A stretch of DNA of 64,000 nucleotides from Candidatus Nomurabacteria bacterium (GCA_020854065.1 JADZGF010000005.1:8925-72924), one strand, 5' to 3'. Positions 1 to 63,044 are shown, counted from the stretch's first letter. Program-made: numbers and translations. The notes: a model not told the origin generated them from the sequence alone.

Positions 1-84
1 CCGGTGCAGGTTGGTACTCGCACGGATTGGTCGCAGGCGGCGATGGGTGCAGGTGTTTTAGGTCTGACGGAATAGCAACATTAC
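1..84 (+). CDS. C-terminal end of an upstream RCC1-repeat protein (partial)
   Basis: Frame 1 translates to PVQVGTRTDWSQAAMGAGVLGLTE followed by a stop. The PVQVGT..W motif matches the RCC1 blades of the next gene. Confidence 0.45.
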
Positions 85-501
85 ATGACAAAAATATCAT
101 CAGCGCGGATAGATATGGAGGGCGGTCGCGTAGACGACTCGGTACTTAAAAGTTTTGCTGAAACTTTGGTTGGTGGGGCAGCGGGGACTAACACCACCTC
201 GACCTACACCGTTGATATCCAAACAGGCAACACCTACCATCTTATTTTAAATGCAAACTGCACCTTTACGTTTAGTAACCCGACTCCAGCAGGCACCTCC
301 TGCTATATCACCATACTCTTGAAACAAGACGGCACTGGCGGGTGGACTGCAACCTGGCCCGCTACAGTGGTCTGGCCAGACGACACTGCTCCAACAGTGA
401 CCACCACTGCAAGTACATGGGTGCTGTATCATTTTTTTACCGTAAATGCGGGCAAGACGTGGTTTGGGGCGGCAACTAATCCTTCCTCTGTATATACATA
501 A
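85..501 (+). CDS. hypothetical protein (Thr/Asn-rich, no recognisable domain)
   Basis: 138 aa ORF with an ATG start, tightly packed between two RCC1 genes. No motif recognised. Confidence 0.4.
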   Translation: MTKISSARIDMEGGRVDDSVLKSFAETLVGGAAGTNTTSTYTVDIQTGNTYHLILNANCTFTFSNPTPAGTSCYITILLKQDGTGGWTATWPATVVWPDDTAPTVTTTASTWVLYHFFTVNAGKTWFGAATNPSSVYT

Positions 502-547
502 AAATATACATAAAAAGGCGAGGTGCGAATAGTTTATACTAATTACT

Positions 548-1654
548 ATGCTCCCGCATCGTGTGTTAACAGTTGCAACAATTCCGGAAGGAGGAAGTCT
601 TTGGGCAACCGGTGGATATGGTAATGGTGTTATCGGCAATAATACCAACAATAACTACTCCTCTCCAGTACAAGTGGGCACACTCGCTACTTGGTCGCAG
701 GTGTCGGCGGGGACTTTACACACCACCGCTGTTAAAACCGACGGTACGTTATGGGCGTGGGGAAATAACGGCGCAGGGCAGGTTGGCGACAACACTGTTA
801 TAACTCGCTCCTCACCAGTACAAGTAGGTACCCTCGCCGATTGGTCACAAGTCTCTGCTGGAGGTACTCATACTGCCGCGGTGAAGACCGATGGCACCTT
901 ATGGGCATGGGGTCAAGGCACGACTGGTGTTGTTGGCGACAATGATAACGTTAATCGTTCCTCTCCGGTTAAAGTGGGCACTCTTTCTACCTGGTCGCAG
1001 GTTTCCGCGGGAGGATCCCACACTGCAGCCGTTAGAACCAACGGCACTTTATGGGCGTGGGGGCAAGGAACCTTAGGTCGCATTGGCCAAAATAACACCA
1101 TCACTCGCTCATCGCCGGTGCAGATTGGTGCACTCACCACCTGGTCACAAGTGTCGGCAGGAGGAAGCCACACTGCCGCAGTTAAGACTGACGGTACTCT
1201 GTGGGTGTGGGGGTATGGCACGTTTGGTGCAGTAGGCGATAATACGAACACGATCCGCTCCTCTCCAGTGCAAGTAGGCACGCTCACCACATGGTTGCAG
1301 GTATCGGCGGGGAAATATCACACTGCCGCGGTGAAGACTGACGGCACCATTTGGGCATGGGGATATAACAGCGCAGGGCAGGTTGGCGACAACTCCACGA
1401 CCACTCGCTCATCGCCGGTGCAAGTAGGGACGCTCACTACTTGGTCACAAGTTTCTCTTCCTGTGGGGGCGAGTCACACTACCGCGATTAAGACCGACGG
1501 GACGCTTTGGGCATGGGGGCTTAATAGCTTTGGTTTTCTCGGTGACAATACTGCTGATAGCCGTTCCTCACCTGTACAAATTGGTTCACGTGTTTGGTCG
1601 AACGTTGCCGCGGGGGGTCTACATACGGTGGCTGTTGGAGGGTCAGTAGGTTAA
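548..1654 (+). CDS. RCC1 (regulator of chromosome condensation)-like beta-propeller repeat protein
   Basis: Seven tandem roughly 53 aa repeats of the form DGTLWAWG.N..GQ.GDN....RSSPVQVG.L..WSQVSAG..HTAAVKT, which is the classic RCC1 blade signature. Confidence 0.85.
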   Translation: MLPHRVLTVATIPEGGSLWATGGYGNGVIGNNTNNNYSSPVQVGTLATWSQVSAGTLHTTAVKTDGTLWAWGNNGAGQVGDNTVITRSSPVQVGTLADWSQVSAGGTHTAAVKTDGTLWAWGQGTTGVVGDNDNVNRSSPVKVGTLSTWSQVSAGGSHTAAVRTNGTLWAWGQGTLGRIGQNNTITRSSPVQIGALTTWSQVSAGGSHTAAVKTDGTLWVWGYGTFGAVGDNTNTIRSSPVQVGTLTTWLQVSAGKYHTAAVKTDGTIWAWGYNSAGQVGDNSTTTRSSPVQVGTLTTWSQVSLPVGASHTTAIKTDGTLWAWGLNSFGFLGDNTADSRSSPVQIGSRVWSNVAAGGLHTVAVGGSVG

Positions 1655-1660
1655 AGTCTT

Positions 1661-3613
1661 TTGTTGCGGGAGTTACTCCTTTTTATATACAATGCCTGCA
1701 TGCACAAAGACCCACTCGACCTACAGCTCGAGGCGAGCATCCGCGGCGACATAGATGAAGCATGGCGTTTATCACAGCTTCTTGAGCAAGAGCGGCCCAC
1801 GGACAACCGCGCTGCATTTAACCGCGGATGGCACTACCTGCGTCTTGGTGATTTACAAAAAGGTTTGGCGCTAACTGAACGAGGAAGACTGGAGGGCGTG
1901 TATGGTTCTCCTGCGCTGAAGACAACCAAACCGCGTTGGCAGGGGGAAGATGTACGCGGCAAAACAATATTACTCCGTCTTGAAGGCGGCTTTGGTGATG
2001 AAATTGTTTTTTCTCGTTTTGCAAAGACTTTTGCCGACAGGGGGGCTCGTGTGATACTTGCAGCTTCAGAATCTATTGTTCCGCTACTCTCTCGGGTGTC
2101 GGGTGTTGCGCAGGCGATGCCACATCGGTTTGTTACCGATGATATGTTTGACTACTGGGTGCCGGGCATGGCCGCACCTCTTGATCTTGGTTTTACATAC
2201 GACACATTGCCAGGTGAGCCGTATGTAGTGCCGCGTGCCGACGCAGTGGCGCACTGGGCGCAGATAATAAAAAGTGACAAGCTAAAAGTAGGTATCCGTT
2301 GGTCAGGTAATCCCAAGTTTGAACACGAGCAACATCGACGCTTTCCTTTTGATGAGTTTTTACAGGCGGTATCACTACCAGGTGTAGAGCTATACAGTCT
2401 CCAGCGCGACCACGATATACGCGACTTGCCGGAACATGTCATTGATCTTCAAGACAAGCTCGTAAGCTGGGAAGATACTGCCGCGGCAATTGCTAACCTC
2501 GATTTAGTTATTACTTCCTGCACCTCTATTGCGCATCTTGCAGCAGCAATGGGGAAGGAAACATGGATTATCATCCCTATACTTCCGTATTACTTATGGG
2601 CCCTGCCAGGTGAAGTGAGTCCATGGTATAAAACCGCGAGACTCTTTCGACAAGAGGTGTTTAAAAACTGGAATGCACCTCTGCAAGGTATACATCGAGC
2701 GCTTGCAGAAAGGGTAGGAGTAGAAGCGCGGGTGGACTATACTAAACCATCCCAAAATCCTATGCCCCCAGCCCCTACACCAACACTTTTTCATAAACCC
2801 CACAGCGCACCGGTGCACAAAAACACCATGCATTTTGTAGCAGGATTGCCGCGTTCAGGCTCGACCGCACTTATGTCAGTCATGGCGCAAAATCCGCGCA
2901 TATTCGCATCTCCTATCTCAGGGCTTGCAGGTATATTTGGCGGTGTACACGCTAATTGGGATAAAAGTGAGTTTCATCAAGAGTTGCCCAACATGGCTGC
3001 AAAGAAACGTACTCTCCGTGCGTTGCTTGAGAACTATCACGAGACTGACCGACCTGTCATTTTAGACAAAGACCGAATATGGGTAATGCATATTGCACTC
3101 CTTGAAGAGGTGCTGGGTCGGAGAGTAAAGATCATTGTGCCGGTGCGGCCCTTGGTTGAGGTCATTGCCTCGTTTGAAGTGCTGCGCCAAAAGAATCCTC
3201 TTGAGTTTACGGGTGCTGATGACTCATTGGGCCCCAGCTCGACACTCGAGAGTCGCGCAGCATATTTTACCGACACCAAGGGACCTATTGGGGTGGCGTA
3301 TAACGCGATGAAAGATGCGGTAACTGCTGGATACTTAGACCGCATGTTGTTTGTGGACTATGGTCGCCTTACCTCTGCCCCTAAAATGCAGCTAAAGCGC
3401 ATTTATGAGTTTTTAGAAGAGCCGTACTTTGAGCATGACTTTAATAAAATTGAGCAGGTTGCTAAAGGTAATAGTCGTGGCGCGCATAAGTTCGAAGGGC
3501 TCCACGATATACGTCCACAGTTTAAAAAAGAGAGCCGCTCGGCGCGCGAGGTGCTTGGCGATGTATATGCTAAATATGACCACCCTGAGCCATGGGCGCC
3601 TTGGATACTCTAA
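1661..3613 (+). CDS. fusion protein: TPR-like N-terminus + GT9 (heptosyltransferase-fold) glycosyltransferase + C-terminal sulfotransferase domain
   Basis: The N-terminal half has GT9-like motifs (KTILLRLEGGFGDEIVFSRF near the start of the catalytic domain; ITSCTSIAHLAAAMGKETWII in the C-lobe). The C-terminal third has a sulfotransferase PAPS-binding 5'-PSB motif (GLPRSGSTAL) and a downstream 3'-PB-like region. Confidence 0.65.
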   Translation: MLRELLLFIYNACMHKDPLDLQLEASIRGDIDEAWRLSQLLEQERPTDNRAAFNRGWHYLRLGDLQKGLALTERGRLEGVYGSPALKTTKPRWQGEDVRGKTILLRLEGGFGDEIVFSRFAKTFADRGARVILAASESIVPLLSRVSGVAQAMPHRFVTDDMFDYWVPGMAAPLDLGFTYDTLPGEPYVVPRADAVAHWAQIIKSDKLKVGIRWSGNPKFEHEQHRRFPFDEFLQAVSLPGVELYSLQRDHDIRDLPEHVIDLQDKLVSWEDTAAAIANLDLVITSCTSIAHLAAAMGKETWIIIPILPYYLWALPGEVSPWYKTARLFRQEVFKNWNAPLQGIHRALAERVGVEARVDYTKPSQNPMPPAPTPTLFHKPHSAPVHKNTMHFVAGLPRSGSTALMSVMAQNPRIFASPISGLAGIFGGVHANWDKSEFHQELPNMAAKKRTLRALLENYHETDRPVILDKDRIWVMHIALLEEVLGRRVKIIVPVRPLVEVIASFEVLRQKNPLEFTGADDSLGPSSTLESRAAYFTDTKGPIGVAYNAMKDAVTAGYLDRMLFVDYGRLTSAPKMQLKRIYEFLEEPYFEHDFNKIEQVAKGNSRGAHKFEGLHDIRPQFKKESRSAREVLGDVYAKYDHPEPWAPWIL

Positions 3614-3616
3614 AGT

Positions 3617-4186
3617 ATGAAAGAAACTGCAAAATGCAAAGCAATGCGCGCGGCACGCGGCGACTTTGCAAAGTACCTGCACGGTGATGGGATAGACATT
3701 GGAGCGGGAGACGACACTCTGGCGGTTGAGAGTGGAACAGTGCGAGGATGGGATCAAAAGGACGGCGATGCGCAAGTGCTTGCAGGTGTCCCTACTAATG
3801 CATATGACTTTGTGTACTCGTCGCATTGTCTCGAGCATATGCGCAACGTAGAGGAGGCGCTTGGAAACTGGACCCGCGTGCTTAAACCAAAAGGGTATCT
3901 GTACGTAGTAGTACCGGATTATATTTTGTACGAAAAACTCACCTGGCCTTCTTTGTATAACACTGACCATAAACAGAGTTTTTCTTTTTTGGTAACACGC
4001 AATATGGTGAAGAGAAGCAACCACTACCATCTCGAGCAAGACCTTTTTCCTTTGTTGCAGCGCTTAGGGTATCGGATACTCTCTGCGGGGATAGAAGATA
4101 CCAATTTTAATTACAACGAAGGGCATGCCGACCAAACACTGGGGAGTGCCTTAGCGCAATTGTGTATCATTGCACAAAAGGTATGA
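3617..4186 (+). CDS. class I SAM-dependent methyltransferase
   Basis: Motif I-like GIDIGAGDD and a downstream hCLEHM acidic motif, with a Methyltransf_11/23-like layout. The stop overlaps the next start (ATGA). Confidence 0.55.
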   Translation: MKETAKCKAMRAARGDFAKYLHGDGIDIGAGDDTLAVESGTVRGWDQKDGDAQVLAGVPTNAYDFVYSSHCLEHMRNVEEALGNWTRVLKPKGYLYVVVPDYILYEKLTWPSLYNTDHKQSFSFLVTRNMVKRSNHYHLEQDLFPLLQRLGYRILSAGIEDTNFNYNEGHADQTLGSALAQLCIIAQKV

Positions 4187-4959
4187 AGCTCGACATTGTT
4201 GTACGTACACACTCAAGAGGGAATGTGCATAACGCTAAAGAATGGGGCGAGCGGTATGTTGGTGCACCTAAAAACGAGGTGATGTTTCGATGTGTTAACT
4301 CACTTGTCACTTCAATCAATCTCGCCGAAGCAGATATACGCGTATGGGTGCTTGATGACAGCTCAGATGAAGCGTCATTGCAGACGTTGCACACCATTAT
4401 AAACAAGTGCCGCTACCCTACAGAATTAATACAACTCCCACCTGAGCAGTGTGGGGTGCAGGGGAGTGCCCTAGCGCAGTTTGAAGCTGGGAAGACGTAC
4501 GGGCGCGAGGTGGTGTACTTTGTCGAGGACGACTATTTGCACACATCAAGTGCGATACAGGAAATGATTGATATGTATGAGTTGGGCAAGAAAAATACCA
4601 AAGGCAAAGAGGTGGCACTTTTCCCTTGTGATTATCCGGATCGATACCAACCAGGCGGCATTAAGTCTTCTTTCATAGTGTATGGAAGCAGACGTCATTG
4701 GCGGACCATACAAGAATCGACCAATACCTGCATGCTTAGTCATGCTCTTTTAGTTGCACACTGGCATCAATTTGAAACACTTGCTAGAAACTATCAACTC
4801 GATCCTGCTGTTACGGAAGAAAACACCGTTAATACTGTATGGCGAGAGCATGCTGTTTTGTTTTCCCCCATACCATCGCTTGCACTCCATGTGCAGTTTA
4901 AGCAGCATAAAGATCCGTATATCGACTGGAAGAGTTGGTGGGACGCTGCGAGGTATTAA
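4183..4959 (+). CDS. family 2-like glycosyltransferase (GT-A fold)
   Basis: VWVLDDSSDE and VYFVEDDYLH (DXD) motifs. The start is placed at MKLDIVV (ATG 4183), overlapping the upstream stop. The ORF track shows an earlier in-frame Met at 4162. Confidence 0.6.
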   Translation: MKLDIVVRTHSRGNVHNAKEWGERYVGAPKNEVMFRCVNSLVTSINLAEADIRVWVLDDSSDEASLQTLHTIINKCRYPTELIQLPPEQCGVQGSALAQFEAGKTYGREVVYFVEDDYLHTSSAIQEMIDMYELGKKNTKGKEVALFPCDYPDRYQPGGIKSSFIVYGSRRHWRTIQESTNTCMLSHALLVAHWHQFETLARNYQLDPAVTEENTVNTVWREHAVLFSPIPSLALHVQFKQHKDPYIDWKSWWDAARY

Positions 4960-5555
4960 CCTTTCTTCCAAAGACTCAGTATCTGATTGTGGTTGCCAAG
5001 ATAGGGATAATATCCAACAAGGCTGAAGTGTTTGGTCATAAGATCAGAGACCTTGATACCATCGTCGTGCCATACGGCCATGCCATTTTTTGGTTCAGTG
5101 GGGACGTAACGTGCAGGCTCGTTAAGCAGCACCACTGTGCCGCCAGGTTTTAATACCGAGTTGATCTTTTTTATTTCTTCTTCAGGTTTCTCGGCATGTT
5201 GCAGCGCAAACGCCGCAAGTGCTATGTCGATGTTTTGTTCGTGATGGTTAAACTTTGGGTTAAAGCGGCCATCACTCACATATTTTTGTGCTTCATGAAG
5301 CATCCCCGCGCTTATATCAACCCCAATTACTTTGCAGCCCACGCGCTCGATAAGTCTCTTGGCCACACGACCCATGCCGCAGCCAAAGTCGAGCACTATC
5401 GATGATTGAATAAGAGGGACATTTTTTATCATAAACTCAACCAAATGGTCAGTTTCTTCTGCGAATTTGTGTGGTCGTGTTGGGTCGGGCACCAACACGA
5501 TATCTTTGGCATGCGCTAGGTTAAGAGGATCAAACGTTTCTTTGTGGTATTTCAT
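4956..5555 (-). CDS. class I SAM-dependent methyltransferase
   Basis: VLDFGCGMGR (motif I) and VLLNEP (motif IV-like) in a Methyltransf_11-like arrangement. Confidence 0.65.
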   Translation of the reverse strand: MKYHKETFDPLNLAHAKDIVLVPDPTRPHKFAEETDHLVEFMIKNVPLIQSSIVLDFGCGMGRVAKRLIERVGCKVIGVDISAGMLHEAQKYVSDGRFNPKFNHHEQNIDIALAAFALQHAEKPEEEIKKINSVLKPGGTVVLLNEPARYVPTEPKNGMAVWHDDGIKVSDLMTKHFSLVGYYPYLGNHNQILSLWKKG

Positions 5556-5935
5556 TGTGCGTAGTGCTTTTCGTCGCGGAGCGTCGAGCCTATGTGTTCG
5601 TCAATTTTTTGCTTAGTAGCGATTCGCTTTGCGTTGCTTTTGTGTACAAGTCCCGAATGTTTTGCAGCTTTCTCCCATTCCTTTTTGCGTAGGTATATGC
5701 GTACTTTGTCTTCAAGCTGCCATTGGCGCTTGTTGATGGTAAAGAGGGTGAGGTGTAATTTACGCAGTGCCTTGCTTTTAGGGAGGGTTTTGTAGATTTT
5801 TTTTAGCTCAGTTAAATGTTTTTTGGTATTAGCGATTTTTGCATGATCGGTAAAGTAGAGGAGTTTAATTTCGAGTATGGTTATGCGGTCGATGAGGTCG
5901 CCAGCCGATGAAGGTATTAGGATTTTCATACGCAA
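5552..5935 (-). CDS. hypothetical basic protein
   Basis: 127 aa ORF translationally coupled to its neighbours (4 nt overlap with the downstream gene). Lys-rich with predicted helices. No domain recognised. Confidence 0.4.
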   Translation of the reverse strand: MRMKILIPSSAGDLIDRITILEIKLLYFTDHAKIANTKKHLTELKKIYKTLPKSKALRKLHLTLFTINKRQWQLEDKVRIYLRKKEWEKAAKHSGLVHKSNAKRIATKQKIDEHIGSTLRDEKHYAQ

Positions 5936-7534
5936 CTACTGTACCTCTTGCGTGTATAGTGTTGCAACTTCTTTTGCCACCTCCTCAGGCTCTGGCAGAT
6001 ATACTGACCAATCAGCCACTGGGACATCGACGTGCATTGCCTCGCCATTGACTGGTTCGCCCAAAATGTCGTCGGCCAACAAGCGCTTGTAGAGCGCTTT
6101 TGTTTTGTATCCCGTTGACCCTTTGCGGTATGGAAAGACGAGGTCTGGGTGTTTGCAGGTAGCGAGCATAACTATCCAGTTATCAAACGCCCCTGCAAGC
6201 TGCACCGGTGAACTATCGTTCGTAAGTAATACCGGCGCAGCCTCCATGAGTGCAAAGAGCTCACCAAGCTCAAGAGTGTTGCGCAAGTCTGTACCGCTTG
6301 GTGGGCACACCACTGGCACAAGTCCTGTTTTGTCTCCATCAACAGACGAGTGGCCTTTGCCGATAAGGCATACGATAAGGCCCTCTTTGGCGAGAAGATC
6401 AACAGTCGATTGCCACCAAGGCAGTGGTAATGTTTTGCTTGCCCAACTTTTGCCGGCATGGACAAGTACTACCTTTGACATATCAATGCCCTGCATCCGC
6501 GCAGCAAGACGTTCACGGTCTGTAGCGTTAGGTACCAAACGGATTTCACGATCTTTAAGCGGAAGCATGCGCATGAGCATGGTCATGGCATGGAAGTCGA
6601 TCATGTGGGTAAGGAGAAACGACACCGAGCGAGAGAGTGCCGAGTCGGGGTTGGGGAGCGTCCAAAAGGTGCGGTATACAACTCCTTGAGGATTAAAGGA
6701 ATTGTGTACATGCACGGGTACACCTAAGTGTTCGTACATGCGTGGCCAAAAACAGGAGATACGAACATTGTCAGTTGGATACAGATGCTCGCGCAAGTAT
6801 CGGATAGCGGGCTCAGCAGAGGCGTGATCGCCCAACCCACCAAACACACTCACCATAATATTCTTCTTGTACTGGTGTTTACCTACATTGGCTGACCATG
6901 TTTCTAAATCATTGCGCATGACGGGCACAAGTACCTCGGGAGAAGGGTAATTACTGTAGTGGATGATATAAGAATCAAAGCGCTCTTCGCCTGTCGTGTC
7001 GAGTGCGGGGAGGCGGTTAAATACATAGGGCAGGGGCAGTATGGCGGTTTCTTTAGCGGCAAACACCGCGCTCATATATTGATTGATCGAAAAACCGAGC
7101 ATTGGGTCTTGTGGGTGCGCAAACAAGTCGCGGTTTTGTTTTGACACTACCAACACGCCGCTGTCATAGATGGTTGGTTTTGTAATTTCTGTACCAAGCA
7201 GCATGGTTGCCGATTGGGCAAGTTCTTTGGTTTTTTCATCAGCGTTTTGCAAAGGGTACGCTCCCACCTTTTCTTCGGCGACGATCTCAAACAGGTCGGG
7301 ACAATCTTCGCGCACGATACAATCGGGTGCTATGTATATGACACGGTCGTATTTCTCGAGTGCATCGTAGAGTTGCAATATGCCCCATGCAGGATGCACG
7401 CCTGATAGTTTTTCCTCCTTTATTTCATCAAAGTCGGCACCAATGCGGCTCGCGTACGCTTTAATCGAAGGCGCACTTACATCGGCAAGTGTTTTGTAGT
7501 CTCTCAGGGTTGAGGTAAGGACAAGTTTTTTCAT
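5936..7534 (-). CDS. two-domain glycosyltransferase: N-terminal GT-A (GT8/GT32-like, DXD) + C-terminal GT9-like (heptosyltransferase fold)
   Basis: The N-terminal half has VIYIAPDCIV and DSGVLVV, typical of GT-A nucleotide-sugar transferases. The C-terminal half has VVLVHAGKSWASKTLP....GLIVCLIGKG and LLTNDSSPVQLAGAFD, matching GT9 motifs. The start is placed at MKKLVLTS (7534), which overlaps the upstream gene's stop. The ORF track extends to 7582. Confidence 0.6.
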   Translation of the reverse strand: MKKLVLTSTLRDYKTLADVSAPSIKAYASRIGADFDEIKEEKLSGVHPAWGILQLYDALEKYDRVIYIAPDCIVREDCPDLFEIVAEEKVGAYPLQNADEKTKELAQSATMLLGTEITKPTIYDSGVLVVSKQNRDLFAHPQDPMLGFSINQYMSAVFAAKETAILPLPYVFNRLPALDTTGEERFDSYIIHYSNYPSPEVLVPVMRNDLETWSANVGKHQYKKNIMVSVFGGLGDHASAEPAIRYLREHLYPTDNVRISCFWPRMYEHLGVPVHVHNSFNPQGVVYRTFWTLPNPDSALSRSVSFLLTHMIDFHAMTMLMRMLPLKDREIRLVPNATDRERLAARMQGIDMSKVVLVHAGKSWASKTLPLPWWQSTVDLLAKEGLIVCLIGKGHSSVDGDKTGLVPVVCPPSGTDLRNTLELGELFALMEAAPVLLTNDSSPVQLAGAFDNWIVMLATCKHPDLVFPYRKGSTGYKTKALYKRLLADDILGEPVNGEAMHVDVPVADWSVYLPEPEEVAKEVATLYTQEVQ

Positions 7535-8760
7535 CGGTCGTTTCGTATATACGTGCAGGCGTGGTGCACAGCTCCTACCCAATCACCATACCTTGGCTGG
7601 CGCAGCGCAACCATGTTTGGGTACCATGGCGCACTGTCCAGTGGCAGCCAGTAGTGGTGTGGGGCGTGTGGCAAGAGTACGAGTGTTTTTTTACCCAAGT
7701 TGCCTGCCAAGTGTGCGGTCGAGGTGTCGTTAGTGACTATATAGTCCATAAGGCTCATTACCGAAGCTGTGCTCTCCCACGACGGGAGCCCCGCTTCGGT
7801 GTCATACACAGGAGCGTCTTTAGGGAGTGTGTTGTTGCCTGCGTCGCGCTGTAAGCTGTAGAGTTGCCCCACCTCGTTTAGTTTTAGTATTTCTTGTGCA
7901 GGAGGTGATTTGCGCTCGAGATAATCAAATGCCCAGTTTCCCTGCCAATGTATGCCAATCTTTACGCGGCCATTTGCTACTTCCGTAATTTTTGGTTCCC
8001 ATTTTTTAACCTCTTCCTTAAGTGGTGCAAAAGTAGGAAATTCCATACCAACCAAAGGATCCCTAATAGCAAAGAGCGGGATCATACTCATGGCGGGGAT
8101 GTAGTAGTCGTATTCGTCTGGGTTAATGGTTTTTATCGCCCGTACGTCTTTCATTCCGGACATGCGGGCGATAAGGGGAACAAGCCGTTGATGTGCGCCG
8201 ACTATGACCGTTGCGCCGTGTTTCTCGAGCCACGGGGCAAAGCGTGCGTAGGCCAGTTCATCGCCAAAGCCGCCTTCGAGTGCAAGTAATACTCTTTTGC
8301 CCTCAAGCAACATTCCTTTTATATACTTCTTCTCTATTGGTAGAGCGTGCGAGGCGTCTATGCGATAAATACCAATCTCTGGCTCGAGCTCGGTAAAGCC
8401 ATGAGCCGTGTCGCCATGTCTGAGCATGTGCCAGCCGGTAAGGTATGCGAGTCCAGGAGTCCCTCGAGGAACCTGGCGTGCGAGTCTTTCGCTTTCATCA
8501 AACTCGCCTATGTATCGAAGATAGTGCGCTAATTTTATTTGGTAATTAAAATTCCCTGGCTCTACAGCGAGCAGGGCTCTCATGATCGCCGCTGCTTCTG
8601 GTGCACGCATAAGATTAAAGAGGCACTCTGCTTCGACTGCTTGGAGCAGTTCATCAGTGCGGCCCAGCGCCTGCAGTTGTTTAACACACGCAAGTGCTTC
8701 ACTAAACTGTTTTTGCGCAAAGTACTCTTGGCCCCTGCGTATAAGCTCTTGTTCGTCCAT
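7531..8760 (-). CDS. TPR-repeat + GT9-like (heptosyltransferase-fold) glycosyltransferase
   Basis: N-terminal TPR-like helices. KRVLLALEGGFGDELAYARF and IVTNDTSTAHLAGNLGKKTLVLLP are paralogous to the N-terminal half of the 1661..3613 protein. Confidence 0.65.
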   Translation of the reverse strand: MDEQELIRRGQEYFAQKQFSEALACVKQLQALGRTDELLQAVEAECLFNLMRAPEAAAIMRALLAVEPGNFNYQIKLAHYLRYIGEFDESERLARQVPRGTPGLAYLTGWHMLRHGDTAHGFTELEPEIGIYRIDASHALPIEKKYIKGMLLEGKRVLLALEGGFGDELAYARFAPWLEKHGATVIVGAHQRLVPLIARMSGMKDVRAIKTINPDEYDYYIPAMSMIPLFAIRDPLVGMEFPTFAPLKEEVKKWEPKITEVANGRVKIGIHWQGNWAFDYLERKSPPAQEILKLNEVGQLYSLQRDAGNNTLPKDAPVYDTEAGLPSWESTASVMSLMDYIVTNDTSTAHLAGNLGKKTLVLLPHAPHHYWLPLDSAPWYPNMVALRQPRYGDWVGAVHHACTYIRNDR

Positions 8761-8762
8761 GG

Positions 8763-9401
8763 TTACAGTAAAGCCCCTGGGTTATGTCCCTGTGCCGCGA
8801 GCCACGCTGCTCCGCGCGCAGGCTTAACGACGCGAGGCTTCATAGTTATCTCTACACAAATATTGTTTTGATGTTGCTGCAAATGTTCCAGGTCGTTCAT
8901 GGTAAGGCGGCCCGCTTCTACCTCGGTAGCAATTTTTTGCGTGTAGCTGTAGTTGACGTCTTTTTGTTGCAGGTCGATGTCTACACCGGTGAAGAGTCCA
9001 AGCTTTGTCTCACGGATACCTTGCTCGGCCATCTGTATGTTGCGTGCCTGGTCAAACATAGCTATGCCAACTGGAGTAATTGGTCGCTTATGAGTTGGGT
9101 CATGGGCAAAGTTCTCATGATTCCAATGGGGGACGGTAATATCTATGACTGCACCATTTTTACAAATACGGTAGAGTTCCTTCCAGATATTTAAATAGGC
9201 CGCTGTAGTTTCGCCTAAGTGTTCAAGTGTGTGTTCAAGCTTCACCTCATCAACTGAACTATCTTCCCAAGGCCACGGTGTTTTCTCGAGGTCCCACACC
9301 ACATCAGGTTGGCACTCAGGGGCGGAGTCTACATTGATATAGCCCGGATACTTTTTAAATCCGCATCCGAGGTTGAGCAGTACGGTGGTTTGAGTACTCA
9401 T
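8763..9401 (-). CDS. class I SAM-dependent methyltransferase-like protein
   Basis: VLLNLGCGFKKYPGYINVD (motif I) and a later LEHTLEHL, consistent with Methyltransf_11/23. Confidence 0.55.
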   Translation of the reverse strand: MSTQTTVLLNLGCGFKKYPGYINVDSAPECQPDVVWDLEKTPWPWEDSSVDEVKLEHTLEHLGETTAAYLNIWKELYRICKNGAVIDITVPHWNHENFAHDPTHKRPITPVGIAMFDQARNIQMAEQGIRETKLGLFTGVDIDLQQKDVNYSYTQKIATEVEAGRLTMNDLEHLQQHQNNICVEITMKPRVVKPARGAAWLAAQGHNPGALL

Positions 9402-10792
9402 GATTGTTTTGGTTCGTCCTTAATTTGGGCGGCCCTGCGCCAATCGCTAAAGGGCTCGGCATCCTTCTTTTTATTATGCGCGAGTGTGGGAATAGGGCAG
9501 AGGGCTGGGACACTCCTTAGCTCATCGTATCCCTTTCGGGCTATGGACAGCAACTCTTGCGGGATAAACAACAATTCTTTGTGTGGGGTGCATACTCGCC
9601 AATGTTTTCGCGTGCCGAGTATGAGTTTAGAATCGACCAGTCTGTCCTTTTTATAATGCGTCGCATCATCTGCGGGGCACAAAAGGAGGGGACCAAGTTC
9701 TTTACTCAATAGTTTGTAGGTATAAAAAAGTTCATGCAGAGTCGATGCTTCATAGGCGTACTCCCCGGAAGCGAAAAACAAAAAATCGGCATCATGTGCG
9801 AGTGATACTGCCTGCTCCAAAAGATCTCCTTCCGGCGCGACTATCGTGTAGGGTACGGGGCACAATGACAGTATCTGCTCAACCTCACTTCCGTGAAGAT
9901 TCTCGGCTTCATATATAAAGGTGGCATTGATACGTACGGCGTTGTGCCTCTCGAGCAAGAGCAGCGAGTAGAGTAGTGACTTCAGTAGTTCGGGATATCC
10001 CTGGGGTGGTGCATACACAATATGGAGCGAAGGTTTTTCTGCGTCAGCGGGCAATGCGGCAGAGGCTTGTGGCACCGGCATGTCGTGGTGTTTGTAGTAC
10101 TCAGCGTTAAATACAAGGGCCCCTGATGAGTCAAGCGTGTAGGAAGAATGTCCGAAGTGTTTATGTTGATAGGCAAGTTTGCGCCCGACATCTTCGCGGC
10201 GCCACGTGTGATGTATAACTTTGGCAATCGAAGGTGGCACAATGCCGGGTATGCGAGTGTATAAAGAAGACCCGTCATTAAATGCTACTTCGTTGTCAAA
10301 TTTAAAGTTCCGGATGCCGCCGGAGCGATCGGTGCGGATAATGCGTGGGGGAAAGAATGCGCCAGGAGAGGAAACCCCAAACACGTGGTTATCAAAATGT
10401 ACGTGGTAGTAGTCAAACTGGGGAGTTTTTTCTACAAACGCAATAATGTCTTTTATCTGTTGCGCTGTGTAATGCTCGTCGCCATCAAGGATCCATATAG
10501 CATCGACTCCTTTTGCAAGAAGTGCATAGAGGACGAGTGATCGAACCTCTTTTTCATACATTGGTTGCTCATCAAGAAAGAGTGCATCAAAATGGCGACT
10601 GTTTGCCCGGAGTGCTTCTCGAGTTGTTTGGTCGTTGTCTGGGTAACCAAGTTCGGCGTACTCCTTAAACTGCACGCTTGCAGCGGCAAGAACAATATCG
10701 TATCCCTGCGCTTTAACCTCAAGCCATGGGGTGATAGTTCTCTCTAACAAGTCTGGTGCACCATAAAAACATCCCAAGACGCCGATTTTCAT
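9398..10792 (-). CDS. putative glycosyltransferase (GT-A-like, DXD motif ILDGDEH) with a C-terminal domain of unknown function
   Basis: A DGDEH acidic motif after a Rossmann-like N-terminus. Weak similarity only. Sits inside the glycosyltransferase cluster. Confidence 0.45.
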   Translation of the reverse strand: MKIGVLGCFYGAPDLLERTITPWLEVKAQGYDIVLAAASVQFKEYAELGYPDNDQTTREALRANSRHFDALFLDEQPMYEKEVRSLVLYALLAKGVDAIWILDGDEHYTAQQIKDIIAFVEKTPQFDYYHVHFDNHVFGVSSPGAFFPPRIIRTDRSGGIRNFKFDNEVAFNDGSSLYTRIPGIVPPSIAKVIHHTWRREDVGRKLAYQHKHFGHSSYTLDSSGALVFNAEYYKHHDMPVPQASAALPADAEKPSLHIVYAPPQGYPELLKSLLYSLLLLERHNAVRINATFIYEAENLHGSEVEQILSLCPVPYTIVAPEGDLLEQAVSLAHDADFLFFASGEYAYEASTLHELFYTYKLLSKELGPLLLCPADDATHYKKDRLVDSKLILGTRKHWRVCTPHKELLFIPQELLSIARKGYDELRSVPALCPIPTLAHNKKKDAEPFSDWRRAAQIKDEPKQS

Positions 10793-10869
10793 GGGGCTAT
10801 CATACTATAGAGGGCTTTGTATGGGTACAAAGGGACATTTTTTGCCTTGGCGTGGGCTATACTACAAAC

Positions 10870-11973
10870 ATGAGGTTCTTCAACTTCCTCAAATACAACA
10901 ACGCCGTACCGATCGGTCTTTTCTTGTTGTTTGGTATGGGAAGTGCTGCGCTGGCTTCTACCCCTGAGGTTCAGCAGGCGGTGTATAACACGCAAGAATC
11001 GGTGGTCAGTATCGACAACAGTTATATCGTCAATGCTGATATAGAAAATTTTGAGTATCAGCTCATGGTAACGGGCATAACCGAGGACGAAGAATTGTAT
11101 TACGTAACGTACACGTATCAGACGATTGATTTGCAACAAGAGGTTTGGCAAGAAGTTACAAAAGGAGGAACGCTTAAATTTACAAAAAAAGAATTAGAAG
11201 GTAGAGATCTTGGGCTTGAGGTAAGTAAGCAATTGGGCGAGCTTATCGCAAGCGAGATGAAGTATCTTGCCGACGTACAAAAGTATGAGCGTGCAAACGG
11301 CGAGTCCCGCAAAGTAGTTGCAACTGAGTACTCAGGACTCATCGGCCGTTTCTTCGATCCGACGCAAAAAGAATTCCCGGGGTATAAACCAGTAATTGAG
11401 CCACCGAAACCTGAAGAAGAGGAACAGACTGCTGCGGTAGCGAATGCGGTAACAGATCCTACACAACCTGTTCCTCCTGAGGAGAAGAAACCGAAAGAGA
11501 GCACGGTGTTAAGTCTCCAGGTGCTTGGCGAAAATCCGGTGCGCGTGGCGCTCGGCAGCGAATACCGCGACCTCGGCGCACTTTTAAGTGATCCAACTGA
11601 TCCATCAATAACCTACAAGGCGTTTGTAAACGGTGAGGAGAAAGTCGCTCCGATAACGGTGACCTCAAATGACGATGCGGTATTTGAAATTGAGTATCGT
11701 GCGGTTGATCAGAACGGCATAAAAGTATTTGTGCGTCGCATTGTGCTCTTCGGCGATGCTCCTGATCCAGGCACCGCAAAGACATTTGGAGGAAACCGCG
11801 ACCTACGACAGGAAGAACCACCTGCTGAAGAACCTCCAGCCGAAGAGCCACCGGCAGAGGAACCGCCCGCTGAAACTCCTCCTGCTGAAGAACCTCCCGC
11901 AGAGGAGCCACCTGCGGAAGAACCGCCTGTCGAAGAGTCGTCCACACCGCCTGCCGAAGAGCCGGCACAATAG
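10870..11973 (+). CDS. secreted protein with Ig-like (DUF5011-type) domain and C-terminal (P-A-E-E-P)n tandem repeats
   Basis: Signal peptide MRFFNFLKYNNAVPIGLFLLFGMGSAALAS. A segment LQVLGENPVRVALGSEYRDLGALLSDPTDPSITY resembles bacterial Ig-like surface domains. Eight or more EEPPA repeats precede the stop. Start chosen at ATG 10870; the upstream part of the ORF overlaps the convergent gene. Confidence 0.55.
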   Translation: MRFFNFLKYNNAVPIGLFLLFGMGSAALASTPEVQQAVYNTQESVVSIDNSYIVNADIENFEYQLMVTGITEDEELYYVTYTYQTIDLQQEVWQEVTKGGTLKFTKKELEGRDLGLEVSKQLGELIASEMKYLADVQKYERANGESRKVVATEYSGLIGRFFDPTQKEFPGYKPVIEPPKPEEEEQTAAVANAVTDPTQPVPPEEKKPKESTVLSLQVLGENPVRVALGSEYRDLGALLSDPTDPSITYKAFVNGEEKVAPITVTSNDDAVFEIEYRAVDQNGIKVFVRRIVLFGDAPDPGTAKTFGGNRDLRQEEPPAEEPPAEEPPAEEPPAETPPAEEPPAEEPPAEEPPVEESSTPPAEEPAQ

Positions 11974-17024: not shown

Positions 17025-17909
17025 ATGGCTCTGAGCGATACGCAGGTTAATAGCCTTGAACTGCGCGCGCGCGACATCCGCGCCACTATTATTGAGATGC
17101 TCACCGCTGCAGGCTCCGGGCACACCGCGGGACCTCTCGGCATGGCGGATATCTTTGCGGCGCTCTATTTTCACATCCTCTCGCACGATCCCGCACATCC
17201 TGAATGGGATTTGCGCGATCGTCTTATCCTCTCCAATGGCCACATCACGCCGGTACGCTATGCTGCGATGGCACATGCAGGCTATTTCCCCGTTGAAGAG
17301 TGTTTAACGCTTCGTAAGTTTGGGTCGCGTCTGCAAGGTCACCCGGAGCGTCAAAAGCTCCCTGGGGTAGAGACTACTTCAGGTCCTCTCGGTTCGGGAC
17401 TCGGTCAGGCTGCCGGATATGCATATGCGGCTCGGATGGACGGAAAGAAATTCCGCACCTTTTGTTTAATGAGCGACGGGGAACAAGATACCGGCAACAT
17501 CTGGGAGTCTGCGATGTTTGCGGGGAATAATCGACTGAGCAACCTCACCGCTATTATTGATCGCAACAATATTCAGATAAACGGAATGACGGAGAATGTT
17601 ATGCCACTTGAGAACATGCGTGCAAAATACGAAGCGTTTAACTGGCATGTACTTGAGATTGATGGACATAACATGCGTGCCATTGTTGATGCGTGTGATG
17701 AAGCAGCGGCAATTTATGAGCGTCCAACCGTAATCATTGCACACACCATCCCTGGCAGAGGAGTACGTGAAATAGAGTTTGACTATCGCTGGCATGGCGT
17801 GCCGCCGGGCAAAGGTCCAACTGACAAAGTTCCGGCAGACAAACAGGCAGAAGTGTTCTTAAAAGAACTCCGGACTTTGAAAGGCAAAATTCAAAGCGAA
17901 CATGAATAG
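17025..17909 (+). CDS. tktA: transketolase, N-terminal (TPP-binding) subunit
   Basis: GSGHTAGPLGMADIFAALYF......LSNGH matches the transketolase PP-domain motifs. 294 aa, typical of split Tkt. Confidence 0.9.
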   Translation: MALSDTQVNSLELRARDIRATIIEMLTAAGSGHTAGPLGMADIFAALYFHILSHDPAHPEWDLRDRLILSNGHITPVRYAAMAHAGYFPVEECLTLRKFGSRLQGHPERQKLPGVETTSGPLGSGLGQAAGYAYAARMDGKKFRTFCLMSDGEQDTGNIWESAMFAGNNRLSNLTAIIDRNNIQINGMTENVMPLENMRAKYEAFNWHVLEIDGHNMRAIVDACDEAAAIYERPTVIIAHTIPGRGVREIEFDYRWHGVPPGKGPTDKVPADKQAEVFLKELRTLKGKIQSEHE

Positions 17910-17916
17910 CTTTTTT

Positions 17917-18468
17917 ATGCGCAAATCGCGAGGTTTTACCCTTATCGAACTCCTGGTTGTTATTGCCATCATCGGCATACTTGCCTCTATTGTGATGGTT
18001 AGTCTCAATGGTGCGCGTGCTAAAGGGCGAGATGCTCGGCGACTTGCTGACTTGAAGTCATTTGAATTTGCACTCAATCTCTACTATGAGGCGAACGAAC
18101 ACTATCCATATACCAACTGCTCTGGCTCTAACAGCTGGGCCAGTTTTGACAGTCCTACCTATTCGCCCAATTTGGTATGTGATACGCCAGGTGGAGCAGG
18201 AGTTACGCTTTCACAAAAGATGAGCCCATACACCGATCCCTTAAAAGACCCGGGAGGTGCAACTGGTGATGCGGGTTATTTGTATATCAACCAAGGAGGA
18301 CGATTCGATTATTGCGTCTTGGTATGGCGCACCCCTGAAAACCTCAACAATTTCCCGCCTGAGACGATACCCGCATCTCAGTGCACTGCATGGAATAGTT
18401 CCGGAGTGTGCACCAGTGGCACTAATGCGTTGTATATAGGGAAAGGTATCTATCAAAACGGCTGTTAA
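17917..18468 (+). CDS. type IV pilin / pseudopilin (prepilin with class III signal peptide)
   Basis: MRKSRG|FTLIELLVVIAIIGILASIV: a short basic leader ending in Gly, Phe at +1, Glu at +5. A C-terminal Cys pair (CTAWNSSGVCTSG...NGC) is consistent with a disulfide-bonded D-region. The start overlaps the tktA stop by a few nt. Confidence 0.8.
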   Translation: MRKSRGFTLIELLVVIAIIGILASIVMVSLNGARAKGRDARRLADLKSFEFALNLYYEANEHYPYTNCSGSNSWASFDSPTYSPNLVCDTPGGAGVTLSQKMSPYTDPLKDPGGATGDAGYLYINQGGRFDYCVLVWRTPENLNNFPPETIPASQCTAWNSSGVCTSGTNALYIGKGIYQNGC

Positions 18469-18478
18469 TCTTGTATAT

Positions 18479-26996: not shown

Positions 26997-27896
26997 TTGG
27001 CTTCTACGAAGCTACCCATGGACGATTTGCAAAAATACAAAGAAAACCCAAAAACTGCCTATATGGTGGAGACGTTGCAGTACCTTACCAACGAGTCTGA
27101 TCGTGCAGCACTCATCACGCAGATGGATGAGATTCTCAAAGCAGAAGAGGGGAGCGATGAACTCCCGAACGAAGCTATTTTAGAAGTCCGTGCCGGTGTG
27201 GGTGGGCAAGAAGCTGCCCTCTTTGCTGAAGAGTTGGCAAACATGTACCAGGCATATGTGGTGGCGCAGGGGTGGAGTGTCCGCACGCTCTCTGAGGCAA
27301 AAACTGATCTTGGGGGGTATAAAGAGGCGGTATTTGAAATTCGGGGGAAGGGAGTGTATGAAAAATTGCGGTATGAGACAGGGGTACATCGCATCCAGCG
27401 TGTTCCTGCAACTGAAAAGAGTGGTCGTGTGCACACGTCCACTGCATCGGTTGCAATCTTGCCGATCCGTAAGAAGCACACCATTGTTATAAATCCCGCT
27501 GATATTGAGTGGGAGTTTTCGCGTGCAGGGGGTGCCGGTGGCCAAAACGTGAATAAGGTTGAGACTGCTGCGCGGGTGATACACAAACCAACGGGTCTTG
27601 ATGCCCGCTCGCAAGCAGAGCGTTCGCAAAACGCCAACCGCGAGCGCGCCATGGCTGTCCTTATGGCCAGACTTGAGCAGCTTGAGGAGGAGAAAGAGGC
27701 TCAAAAATATGCTGCGCATCGTGCATCCCAAATTGGTACCGCGGATCGCTCTGAGAAGATTAGAACCTATAACATCCTGCAGGATCGCGTAACCGACCAT
27801 CGCATCAAGCAGGACTGGCATAATCTTCCTAAAATTTTTGCAGGTTCGCTTGACCCTATTATTGATGCCCTACTCTCGTATACAGCGACTGAGTAA
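26997..27896 (+). CDS. prfA: peptide chain release factor 1 (short N-terminal domain)
   Basis: GGQ motif ([14 protein letters not shown]), a PAT tripeptide ([14 protein letters not shown], which is RF1-type rather than the SPF of RF2), and [13 protein letters not shown]. Confidence 0.85.

Positions 27897-56195: not shown

Positions 56196-63044
<6,849 letters not shown>

Follow-up and report, generated by a model that had tools for sequence, protein, structure and literature searches.

What do the enzymes of a glycan-modification island in an ultra-small bacterium act upon? The island lies at positions 1-11973 of the window, by which we mean the whole 64,000-nucleotide stretch of DNA analyzed, taken from a CPR MAG named Candidatus Nomurabacteria at NCBI. 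It encodes RCC1 propeller proteins together with three GT9-like domains, GT-A transferases, a sulfotransferase, and three methyltransferases (Table 1). The window starts inside the locus, the DNA 5' of position 1 being unseen. An earlier note on this DNA had proposed that pilins or other surface proteins are modified and had listed the RCC1 proteins as mere components of the cluster.

Composition and chromosomal setting of the island

A gene cluster of the composition claimed in the earlier note is real, and Pfam, PHROG, and paralogue comparisons show its enzymes to be what they had been called. Residues 392-598 of ORF2 score 40.7 bits against Sulfotransfer_1 (cut-off 22) and 40.2 bits against Sulfotransfer_3 (cut-off 27), match phrog_27463 at 4.5e-45, and exhibit two motifs invariant across four orthologues, GLPRSGST and VRP...S, which we take to be 5'-PSB-like and 3'-PB-like PAPS-binding motifs, respectively. 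The three methyltransferases and two further GT-A transferases were borne out as well, the methyltransferase at 8763-9401 via PHROG, its Methyltransf_11 score of 18.1 bits being below the Pfam cut-off of 21.2. This last enzyme is of the type found downstream of the GT9-like gene in phages and Bdellovibrio. ORF4, with 19 bits against Glycos_transf_2 (under cut-off), is a paralogue of the C-terminal half of ORF10 (23% identity, E 2e-7) and has an intact DxD motif (VEDDY); in ORF10, the N-terminal domain displays DGDE, and the C-terminal DxD is replaced by SGE in this clade. The combination of a GT-A fold and a DxD motif that marks GT-A/GT2 enzymes is found in the island. The methyltransferase at 4956-5555 is 48% identical to its orthologue in the related CPR locus L003, and the adjacent small protein is 43% identical to its L003 orthologue and 40% identical to a gene of the S-SRM01 phage island. 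All island enzymes are predicted to be soluble, without transmembrane or signal segments, and a Pfam scan detected no flippase or polymerase (Wzx/Wzy), polyprenyl-phosphate transferase, or oligosaccharyltransferase in or near the island.

Table 1. Features at the 5' end of the window, with the evidence for each assignment
Position	Strand	Feature	Evidence or remark
1..75	+	C-terminal 24 codons and stop of upstream RCC1-repeat protein, cut by window edge	Frame-1 translation
85..501	+	138-aa protein, phage tail-fibre C-terminal-like domain (PF26209 Phage_phiTE_241_C type)	
548..1654	+	368-aa seven-repeat RCC1 β-propeller, proposed glycosylation substrate	PF00415, E 3.6e-68, 7 stretches
1700..2740	+	ORF2 N-half: short helical N-domain and GT9-like GT-B glycosyltransferase	
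2816..3613	+	ORF2 C-half: PAPS-type sulfotransferase domain	Pfam above cut-offs
3617..4186	+	Class I SAM methyltransferase, 189 aa	Methyltransf_23 42.7 bits, Methyltransf_11 41.4 bits, both above cut-offs
4183..4959	+	ORF4: GT-A glycosyltransferase, 258 aa	Listed start GTG 4162
4956..5555	-	Class I SAM methyltransferase, 199 aa	Methyltransf_25 58 bits, Methyltransf_11 54.9 bits, above threshold
5552..5929	-	DUF6165/DUF4254-like small protein	Pfam matches below threshold
5936..7534	-	ORF7: weak GT8-like (GT-A) N-half and divergent GT9-like C-half (5936-6877)	
7531..8760	-	ORF8: TPR (residues 1-137) and GT9-like GT-B glycosyltransferase, 409 aa	
8763..9401	-	Methyltransferase, 212 aa	phrog_6636 methyltransferase, 4.3e-12
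9398..10792	-	ORF10: double GT-A glycosyltransferase, 464 aa	
10870..11973	+	N-terminally anchored Ig-like surface protein, PAEEP-repeat tail	Listed start 10756

As for the GT9-like enzymes, three paralogues had been announced. Three GT9-like domains are indeed present, but the C-terminal half of ORF7 is related only distantly to the other two, which leaves two true paralogues, the N-terminal half of ORF2 and ORF8 (35% identity over 319 aa, E 6e-53), and one divergent domain. Family assignment by Pfam succeeded in part: ORF7 scores 22.7 bits against Glyco_transf_9 (PF01075), just above the cut-off of 22, but ORF8 stays below it at 17.3 and ORF2 gives no match; precomputed PF01075 matches exist on some homologues. 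ORF7 also scores 17.9 bits against Glyco_transf_8, its C-terminal half matches WaaF (1psw) in a profile comparison (E 1.9e-4), and a single protein of the CPR locus L005 contains an ORF8-like domain followed by one of this type. ORF2 likely starts at ATG 1700 rather than at the listed TTG 1661; its orthologue in the CPR locus L001 begins MHKDPLD. In a structure model of the ORF8 monomer, residues 3-137, where TPR Pfam matches fall, form helices. The best Foldseek matches are XcOGT and SPY, and the GT-B fold is nearest to heptosyltransferases, with TibC among the top structural matches; a GT41-type catalytic domain was not found in this TPR-GT-B enzyme.

The Pfam scan of the 64-kb window covered ORFs of at least 150 aa, and of at least 80 aa in the first 14 kb. 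Among these ORFs we found the sortase and the pilin that had been reported, and no LPS gene, as had also been stated; the CARDB protein is present, but its match is weak. The picture of giant surface-protein neighbors fared less well, the 2282-aa ORF at 56196-63044 being a fused rpoB-rpoC that we rejected as a surface protein. No equivalents of gmhA, hldE, or gmhB occur within the window, where the PfkB encoded at 20005-20994 gets its higher score as a ribokinase, nor does an APS kinase for PAPS supply. For this genome, a heptose donor is putative, though HldE/HldD-like genes do occur in related CPR islands. These encode an RfaE-I-like kinase, an RfaE-II-like adenylyltransferase, and an HldD-like epimerase (298-330, 137, and 215 bits, respectively, in L003/L005, all just below the curated NCBIfam cut-offs), and also an APS kinase, found in L005.

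Among the CPR relatives examined, the island keeps one and the same chromosomal position. The locus adjoins gapdh-rpiB-rpe-tkt not only in the window but also in L003, L005, and L006, although its proteins are only 35-60% identical; L001 is syntenic with the window up to the end of its contig. In GC content, the island matches the remaining window sequence. Every ORF is intact, and the intergenic region shows conservation with L001. At the far end of the island, the Ig-like protein, with a single, N-terminal hydrophobic segment, shares 37-39% identity with its orthologues in L003 and L005, in which PF16403 is present, and has no relatives in the viral, metagenome, and other bacterial loci.

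RCC1 proteins and GT9-like enzymes across bacteria and phages

The seven-repeat RCC1 protein (548-1654) displays 25% Ser+Thr and no predicted signal peptide, transmembrane, or hydrophobic segment. With RCC1 proteins of the cyanophages BUCT-ZZ01 and S-SRM01 it shares 46-50% identity, and it matches PHROGs 4219, 7220, and 16766 at E 9e-39. The protein cut by the window edge (frame-1 translation PVQVGTRTDWSQ...*) corresponds to a syntenic orthologue in L001 that exceeds 839 aa, contains 12-13 RCC1 repeats, and has a PF26209-like N terminus. Between the two lies the 138-aa protein, which matches the PHROG tail-fibre families phrog_9017 (4.8e-15) and phrog_7760 (2e-10), and whose L001 orthologue has PF26209 on record. 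With residues 1-129 of the 855-aa RCC1 protein encoded in L003, this protein shares 57% identity; in other CPR islands, the same type of domain is fused to the N terminus of the RCC1 protein. It has relatives in 23 of the 80 viral loci.

The RCC1-repeat protein is the only non-enzyme partner that travels with the GT9-like family in CPR, Bdellovibrionota, Bacteroidota, Planctomycetota, and phages. An RCC1 gene adjoins a gene of the ORF2/ORF8 family in all CPR loci, two loci of Bacteroidota (L008, L010), three of Bdellovibrionota (L011, L014, L015), and one of Planctomycetota (L016). The ORF2 N-terminal half is 41-46% identical to these non-CPR genes, except in L015 (37%), and shows a median identity of 45.8% to its 80 viral relatives. 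RCC1 genes are found on 75 of the 80 closest viral contigs, that is, in all 29 clusters at 70% identity, and lie within 1.5 kb of the GT9-like gene in 26 of these clusters, usually directly upstream on the same strand where gene order was listed. These contigs come from IMG/VR and may include misassigned cellular DNA, but two cultured cyanophages, BUCT-ZZ01 and S-SRM01, confirm the module, with the RCC1/GT9-like pair beside tail-fibre genes. Among 50,697 deposited phage records, the best four RCC1 matches and the best four glycosyltransferase matches are the same records (three phages, S-SRM01 having been deposited twice). The coupling holds for a subfamily only, since more distant family members (at most 39% identity) are RCC1-linked in just 8 of 65 metagenome clusters. 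The 150 best representatives of the family include no RCC1-glycosyltransferase fusion.

In phages, the module is ordered tail-fibre domain, RCC1 protein, GT9-like enzyme, sulfotransferase, methyltransferases. The plus-strand operon of the window is colinear with it, the succession 85-501, 548-1654, 1700-3613, 3617-4186 matching L103-L130, L182, and L183. Accessory genes recur too: relatives of the sulfotransferase in 37, of the 8763-type methyltransferase in 49, and of the ORF4-type GT-A enzyme in 24 of the 80 viral loci, which also carry FkbM and Methyltransf_24 methyltransferases and an APS-kinase-like gene (present in L103). The sulfotransferase is fused to a glycosyltransferase in L115, as is the 8763-type methyltransferase in BUCT-ZZ01. 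By these comparisons, the chromosome harbors a copy of a tail-fibre-associated module that is widespread in tailed phages and of which no description was found in the literature searched. The hairy jumbo coliphage phAPEC6 has RCC1-like proteins of ~40 kDa among those detected in its virions, and the authors of that study guessed at a role in DNA condensation (PMC7247149). No glycosylation is reported for these proteins, and phAPEC6 is not among the phages with a GT9-like gene in the 50,697 records.

Candidate substrates of the enzymes

Two groups of known enzymes help to interpret the island. TibC and AAH are bacterial autotransporter heptosyltransferases that act on TibA/AIDA-I repeats. Their autotransporter substrate adjoins the enzyme, whereas the window has no autotransporter and the adjoining partner is an RCC1 β-propeller. 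In contrast to TibC/AAH, whose similarity is undetectable by sequence profile search, the island enzymes exhibit an N-terminal TPR or helical domain, are accompanied by GT-A, sulfotransferase, and methyltransferase genes, and would have a heptose donor only putatively. FlmG and the OGT/SPY-type enzymes are cytoplasmic protein O-glycosyltransferases. They share with ORF8 an N-terminal TPR domain, a C-terminal GT-B domain, and solubility. In FlmG, the flagellin glycosyltransferase of Caulobacter, the TPR domain binds the protein substrate (PMC7591256).

The soluble enzymes, the missing flippase and polymerase, and the TPR/helical N-terminal domains together favor cytoplasmic protein glycosylation with methylated and sulfated sugars. 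This much of the surface glycosylation proposed earlier stands, while its pilin, sortase/CARDB, and S/T-rich targets lack comparative support. We consider the chances evenly balanced that the island encodes a cytoplasmic system that glycosylates the island's own RCC1 proteins rather than pilins or sortase substrates; most likely, the soluble transferases encoded beside RCC1 fibre proteins decorate those very proteins. The RCC1 proteins would fold in the cytoplasm and be bound by the ORF2 N-half, ORF8, and the ORF7 C-half via their TPR/helical N-domains, and these GT9-like GT-B enzymes would put the first sugars on Ser/Thr of the RCC1 repeats, perhaps from a nucleotide-heptose donor, in the manner of TibC/AAH on AIDA-I/TibA and of FlmG on flagellins. 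The glycan would then be extended by the GT-A enzymes (ORF4, ORF10, ORF7 N-half) and capped with sulfate and methyl groups by the ORF2 sulfotransferase domain and the three methyltransferases, and the decorated propellers may become exposed fibre or adhesin components. In Bdellovibrio, the RCC1 partners carry twin-arginine (Tat) signals, which implies export after cytoplasmic folding; in the CPR RCC1 proteins, no recognizable export signal was found, which leaves their surface exposure putative.

Gene adjacency is also compatible with RCC1 proteins that act as lectins or scaffolds for the product of the enzymes. Such a product might be a free, lipid- or wall-linked sulfated and methylated glycan (capsule, S-layer, or teichoic-like) or a small glycoside, which we find improbable. 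Five or six transferase domains with capping enzymes resemble polysaccharide loci, nucleotide-sugar genes occur in related islands, GT9 enzymes classically act on glycolipids, and PilX2 has an RCC1 domain similar to a fucose-binding lectin (PMC11623550). However, an initiating phosphoglycosyl transferase, flippase, polymerase, ABC exporter, and ligase are absent from the island and from the CPR and phage counterparts examined, the enzymes are all predicted to be soluble, the TPR-GT-B architecture is typical for protein-modifying enzymes, and a phage would gain little from a free polysaccharide made beside its fibre genes. We also doubt that the targets are those of the earlier note, namely pilins, sortase-anchored/CARDB proteins, or neighboring S/T-rich membrane-anchored proteins glycosylated before export, a group in which the candidates include the Ig-like protein (10870-11973) and the 968-aa protein at 11989-14895. 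Soluble TPR enzymes without lipid-linked machinery would suit these targets too, the window holds a pilin and a sortase, and O-glycosylation has been predicted for saccharibacterial pilins (PMC11623550). But pilin and sortase lie 7-27 kb from the island among housekeeping genes, and the 968-aa protein, for all its 30% Ser+Thr, is not conserved in related CPR islands, which counts against the neighboring S/T-rich giant as a target. The Ig-like protein is kept in the CPR islands examined (L001, L003/L004, L005, L006), divergent from ORF10 where ORF10 is present; it is missing from every phage, Bdellovibrio, Bacteroidota, and Planctomycetota locus with the glycosyltransferase/sulfotransferase/methyltransferase set and so cannot be the general substrate of the family, although it could be an additional CPR-specific target or anchor.

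Might the region instead belong to a prophage as its tail-fibre end, or be what is left of a decaying phage, with no role in the CPR cell? Its colinearity with the phage module at 44-46% identity, the tail-fibre-type domain at 85-501, a tail-fibre-like 1005-aa protein in L006, and the unseen upstream side speak for this reading, which we nevertheless hold to be quite unlikely. The shared site next to gapdh-rpiB-rpe-tkt despite the divergence of its proteins, the intact ORFs, the conserved intergenic region, and the unchanged GC content argue against it, and no capsid, portal, terminase, or integrase was detected in the 64-kb window (Pfam), the 10-kb flanks of L003 and L005 (precomputed Pfam, a few PHROG scans), or the flank of L006 (BLAST against annotated neighbors). 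Ordinary heptosylation of the LPS inner core is almost certainly not the function, even though the GT9 fold and the HldE/HldD-like genes of related islands would agree with it. To our knowledge, a CPR bacterium such as this one would not be expected to have LPS genes, and the Pfam-scanned ORFs of the 64 kb include no lpx, kds, or waa gene. The sequences are too far from WaaC and WaaF for detection by profile search; relative to these enzymes and the Veillonella GT9 protein 3tov (PF01075), ORF2 and ORF8 fall under the Pfam threshold, have extra N-domains (TPR in part), and belong to a family coupled to RCC1 even in phages.

Attachment to other cells is the way of life of both CPR episymbionts and Bdellovibrio predators. 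More tentatively, RCC1 propellers with sulfated, methylated, and possibly heptose-based glycans might represent a previously unrecognized class of glycoprotein fibres or adhesins common to tailed phages and these bacteria, the CPR locus being a domesticated phage fibre-plus-glycosylation cassette for host recognition. Within CPR, efficient host binding by a Saccharibacterium requires the minor pilin PilX2, which combines a seven-bladed RCC1 propeller with a non-canonical signal and is predicted to be O-glycosylated (PMC11623550). Compared by description, the RCC1 proteins of the window differ from PilX2 in having no pilin-like N terminus and in carrying or adjoining a phage tail-fibre-type domain. 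Cultured carriers of the module exist, which opens the proposed modification of RCC1 proteins to test.

Gene content of the island and families of its enzymes

Listing the ORFs and scanning them against Pfam and PHROGs resolves the island into two convergent operons, the components of which are listed below. ORF8 and ORF10 are identical in sequence to the NCBI proteins IT396_01400 and IT396_01410, respectively, which belong to a Candidatus Nomurabacteria MAG. None of the island enzymes contains a hydrophobic segment.

Features of the island (window positions; GT, glycosyltransferase)
Feature	Positions	Strand	Remarks
RCC1 protein, final 24 codons only	1-75	+	Cut by the window edge
138-aa protein with a phage tail-fibre PHROG match	85-501	+	phrog_9017, 4.8e-15
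RCC1 propeller, seven repeats	548-1654	+	
ORF2, GT9-like N-terminal half, sulfotransferase C-terminal half	1661/1700-3613	+	Sulfotransfer_1/3 above threshold; phrog_27463, 4.5e-45
Methyltransferase	3617-4186	+	
ORF4, GT-A-like protein	4183-4959	+	
Methyltransferase	4956-5555	-	
DUF6165-like protein	5552-5929	-	
ORF7, GT8-like and GT9-like	5936-7534	-	
ORF8, TPR and GT9-like	7531-8760	-	
Methyltransferase (MT_8763)	8763-9401	-	
ORF10	9398-10792	-	Without a Pfam match
N-anchored Ig-like protein	10870-11973	+	Divergent from ORF10

The N-terminal half of ORF2 shares 35% identity with ORF8. The C-terminal half of ORF7 is barely above the Pfam GT9 threshold, and a four-sequence profile of this half matches WaaF (E 1.9e-4). 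These fold checks therefore bear out the enzyme inventory drawn up in the earlier note. When compared with the ORF2/ORF8 family using hhalign, the C-terminal half of ORF7 displays a weak but colinear similarity, via the GGxGD and TNDSSP..AGA motifs, and because of this weakness we do not consider ORF7 a close paralogue of the other two. Searches of PDB sequences with ORF2, ORF7 and the GT-domain profile A4 gave no match, the full-length GT profile A1 retrieved TPR proteins only, and no significant solved relative of the sulfotransferase domain emerged. The GT family comprises 18,386 representative clusters (E of 1e-10 or better), and no RCC1-GT9 fusion is found among its 150 best representatives. 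Many members (P0206-P0350) are giant proteins of 1200-3100 aa in which the GT domain is repeated three to six times in tandem.

In the second GT-A domain of ORF10 (residues 340-346), SGE replaces the EDD (DxD) motif that is present at this site in 18/25 aligned homologues, a change shared only with its three closest relatives. ORF4, a stand-alone paralogue in which EDD is kept, may act in place of this domain. A 968-aa N-anchored protein encoded at 11989-14895 (+) is 30% Ser+Thr, exhibits LCCL and Calx-beta domains and three copies of a Cys-containing segment ('CPSLxGTQTSYPSGSSP'), and is not conserved in related CPR islands.

The island in other CPR genomes and RCC1 neighbours in other bacteria

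Five CPR loci (L001/L002, L003/L004, L005/L007 and L006) also carry the island, with enzyme sets that differ between loci. Identity between L001/L002 and the window is 89% for ORF8 and 79-98% for the other island proteins, and the chromosomal place next to gapdh-rpiB is the same in the window, L003, L005 and L006. Domain fusions link several components of the island. The fusion of a GT9-like domain to a sulfotransferase is present in all related CPR loci; in L005, domains similar to ORF8 and to the C-terminal half of ORF7 are also fused in one protein. In related islands, the tail-fibre-type domain usually makes up the N-terminal part of an RCC1 protein (484-915 aa), and such proteins are often encoded in tandem. 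In the window and L001, this domain and the propeller are encoded by separate ORFs in different frames, with an AT-rich spacer conserved between the two loci, and in L003, L006 and L007 they are one protein. A 1005-aa protein encoded upstream of the RCC1 genes in L006 (39-3056) matches phage tail-fibre PHROGs (E about 1e-21), a further sign that the locus resembles phage fibre regions.

The L003 and L005 islands carry additional genes, encoding a kinase resembling RfaE domain I (330 and 298 bits against a cut-off of 345), an adenylyltransferase resembling RfaE domain II (137 against 181.5), an epimerase resembling HldD (215 against 275), PseB/RmlD-like enzymes and an APS kinase. This suggests a supply of heptose and PAPS; no such genes were found in the window. 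The L003 kinase (469-1827) is fused to a C-terminal cupin domain of the mannose-6-P-isomerase type. This fusion is very common in CPR, with more than 120 clusters at 50% identity or more in Paceibacterota, Liptonbacteria, Daviesbacteria and Parcubacteria, a frequency suggesting that bacteria lacking LPS may have a pathway of the heptose type. Among the 120 matches listed, none is from the same MAG as the window (IT396).

A scan for the ORF2 family, using one genome per species, identified 16 loci. The nearest relatives outside CPR, which are 37-46% identical, lie directly beside large RCC1-repeat genes. For example, the GT9-like gene of Bdellovibrio bacteriovorus Bd16 has as neighbours two RCC1 genes, at about CP168971:2,820,900-2,827,600, with products of 1091 and 1073 aa. 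RCC1 neighbours also occur in two other Bdellovibrionota, two Bacteroidota and one Planctomycetota MAG. In three Bdellovibrionota loci (L011, 11604-18240; L014, 11008-13335; L015, 11930-13075), an RCC1 protein next to the GT, of up to 1091 aa, starts with a twin-arginine (Tat) signal and is therefore predicted to be exported already folded.

The module in phages

Scanning IMG/VR with a GT-domain profile yielded at least 521 confirmed viral relatives, the 80 best of which were used for locus counts. RCC1-repeat ORFs, with up to 48 repeats, are present in 75/80 (HMM) or 77/80 (tblastn) of these loci, and in the loci with a listed gene order, the RCC1 ORF is usually upstream on the same strand, its end lying within a few hundred bases of the GT. 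After clustering these 80 GTs at 70% identity, RCC1 is in the locus in all 29 viral clusters and within 1.5 kb in 26 of them. This coupling of GT and RCC1 genes is what the analysis shows, along with the fold assignments and the solubility predictions. Since distant members of the GT family are mostly not linked to RCC1 (which is found in 8/65 metagenome clusters), the coupling defines a subfamily only.

The viral module consists, in order, of a tail-fibre protein with a PF26209-like domain, a phage tail assembly chaperone, the RCC1 protein, a GT9-like enzyme of about 350 aa, a sulfotransferase of about 265 aa, an MT_8763-type methyltransferase, and further methyltransferases (Methyltransf_24, FkbM) with an APS-kinase-like gene. 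GT-sulfotransferase and GT-methyltransferase fusions occur in two viral loci (L115 and L116) and in BUCT-ZZ01. In two cultured T4-like cyanophages, BUCT-ZZ01 and S-SRM01, the module is beside annotated tail-fibre genes. BUCT-ZZ01 encodes an RCC1 protein (annotated "BNR repeat") followed by a 571-aa fusion of GT9-like and methyltransferase domains, and S-SRM01 encodes three RCC1 proteins, 47-50% identical to that of the window, together with a TPR-GT9-like protein, a sulfotransferase, glycosyltransferases, a DUF6165-like gene and an epimerase. As seen from the recurring viral gene order and these cyanophage loci, the plus-strand operon of the window is colinear with the phage module, to which it is 44-46% identical. 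Of the 50,697 phage records deposited, the same four, from three phages, are the best matches both to the RCC1 protein of the window and to its GT.

A candidate pathway for glycosylation of RCC1 proteins

In phages and in four bacterial phyla alike, the RCC1-repeat gene is the only non-enzyme gene that accompanies these transferases. The enzymes are predicted to be soluble, and two of them have TPR or helical N-terminal domains, of the kind that in FlmG binds the protein substrate (PMC7591256). TibC, which heptosylates repeats of an adhesin encoded adjacent to it, is among the closest folds. We therefore propose that the GT9-like enzymes would glycosylate RCC1 propellers in the cytoplasm, that the GT-A enzymes would lengthen the glycan, and that the sulfotransferase and methyltransferases would cap it, the products being putative components of exposed fibres or adhesins. 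The acceptor, the donor, the order of steps, the export route in CPR and the biological role are those we infer. Ser/Thr residues are strongly conserved in 2006 aligned RCC1 repeats (RSSP, G-S/T-S/T-S/T-W), which may be general to RCC1 repeats. In support of an exposed role, we count the predicted Tat export of the Bdellovibrio RCC1 partners and two published findings. The virion proteome of phAPEC6, a hairy jumbo phage, includes RCC1-like proteins of ~40 kDa (PMC7247149), and the Saccharibacterium minor pilin PilX2, which has an RCC1 propeller, is needed for efficient host binding (PMC11623550).

The earlier note had favored glycosylation of surface proteins or pilin. For pilin or sortase substrates as targets, the comparative loci offer no support, although the conserved Ig-like protein could be an extra, CPR-specific target or anchor. 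Synthesis of an LPS core is effectively excluded for this window, with no LPS genes among the ORFs scanned. A free glycan, to which the RCC1 proteins would bind as lectins, is possible; against it, export and lipid-carrier machinery is absent from the locus, no flippase, polymerase or lipid-carrier transferase having been found in the island. The phage-like genes might also be read as a plain prophage remnant, which is unlikely since the chromosomal position is kept in divergent CPR genomes, the island ORFs are intact, GC content is ordinary, and neither the window from position 1 onward nor the flanks in relatives contain phage hallmark genes. GC is 0.456-0.526 in island bins vs 0.488-0.534 elsewhere in the window, only the 4-6 kb bin being slightly low, and on this GC evidence a recent horizontal transfer is rejected.

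Glycosylation of RCC1 propellers would make the module, as we rate it, akin to systems such as TibC/AIDA-I and FlmG/flagellin, which are dedicated to glycosylating proteins in the cytoplasm. In contrast to these, it would add a new substrate class, sulfation and methylation, and its distribution joins phages, CPR episymbionts and Bdellovibrio predators. Glycosylation of virion proteins is rare among phages, as is sulfation of protein glycans among bacteria. In the literature searched (CPR heptose and glycosylation, Bdellovibrio RCC1, and RCC1 with phage tails or glycosylation), we found no description of an RCC1/GT9-like/sulfotransferase module. The S-SRM01 paper reports generic glycosyltransferase matches only, in PHROGs, phage RCC1 families are placed by name alone under DNA metabolism, as "regulator of chromosome condensation", and according to the phAPEC6 paper nothing is known of RCC1-like proteins in prokaryotes (PMC7247149). 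RCC1-repeat proteins of phages and bacteria are numerous and without assigned function. That they are accompanied, in hundreds of viral contigs and in four bacterial phyla, by a dedicated cassette for glycosylation, sulfation and methylation provides the first concrete, testable hypothesis, that they are glycosylated fibres. Little is understood of how CPR bacteria attach to their hosts, and for them the module suggests a candidate, an adhesin system of the phage type. The idea is open to direct testing in culturable carriers, namely B. bacteriovorus Bd16 and the Synechococcus phages BUCT-ZZ01 and S-SRM01.

Outside the island, the window holds housekeeping genes (gapdh, rpiB, rpe, gyrB, dnaE, fused rpoBC, a split transketolase and those for ribosomal proteins), together with genes for a sortase, a pilin and a protein with a weak CARDB match. 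The 2282-aa ORF at 56196-63044 (+) is the rpoB-rpoC fusion and not a surface protein; in it, the full set of RNA polymerase beta (Rpb2) domains precedes the full set of beta-prime (Rpb1) domains. A search for an RF2 frameshift motif near 26997 did not find one. The transketolase (17025-19462, +) is split into an N gene (17025-17909) and a C gene (18479-19462), between which lies a type IV pilin-like gene with an N_methyl motif (17902-18468); a pilin gene in the gapdh-rpiB-rpe neighbourhood is also present in L005 and L006. The 299-aa ORF at 47181-48080 (+) is a fusion of NusB with a NUDIX hydrolase domain.
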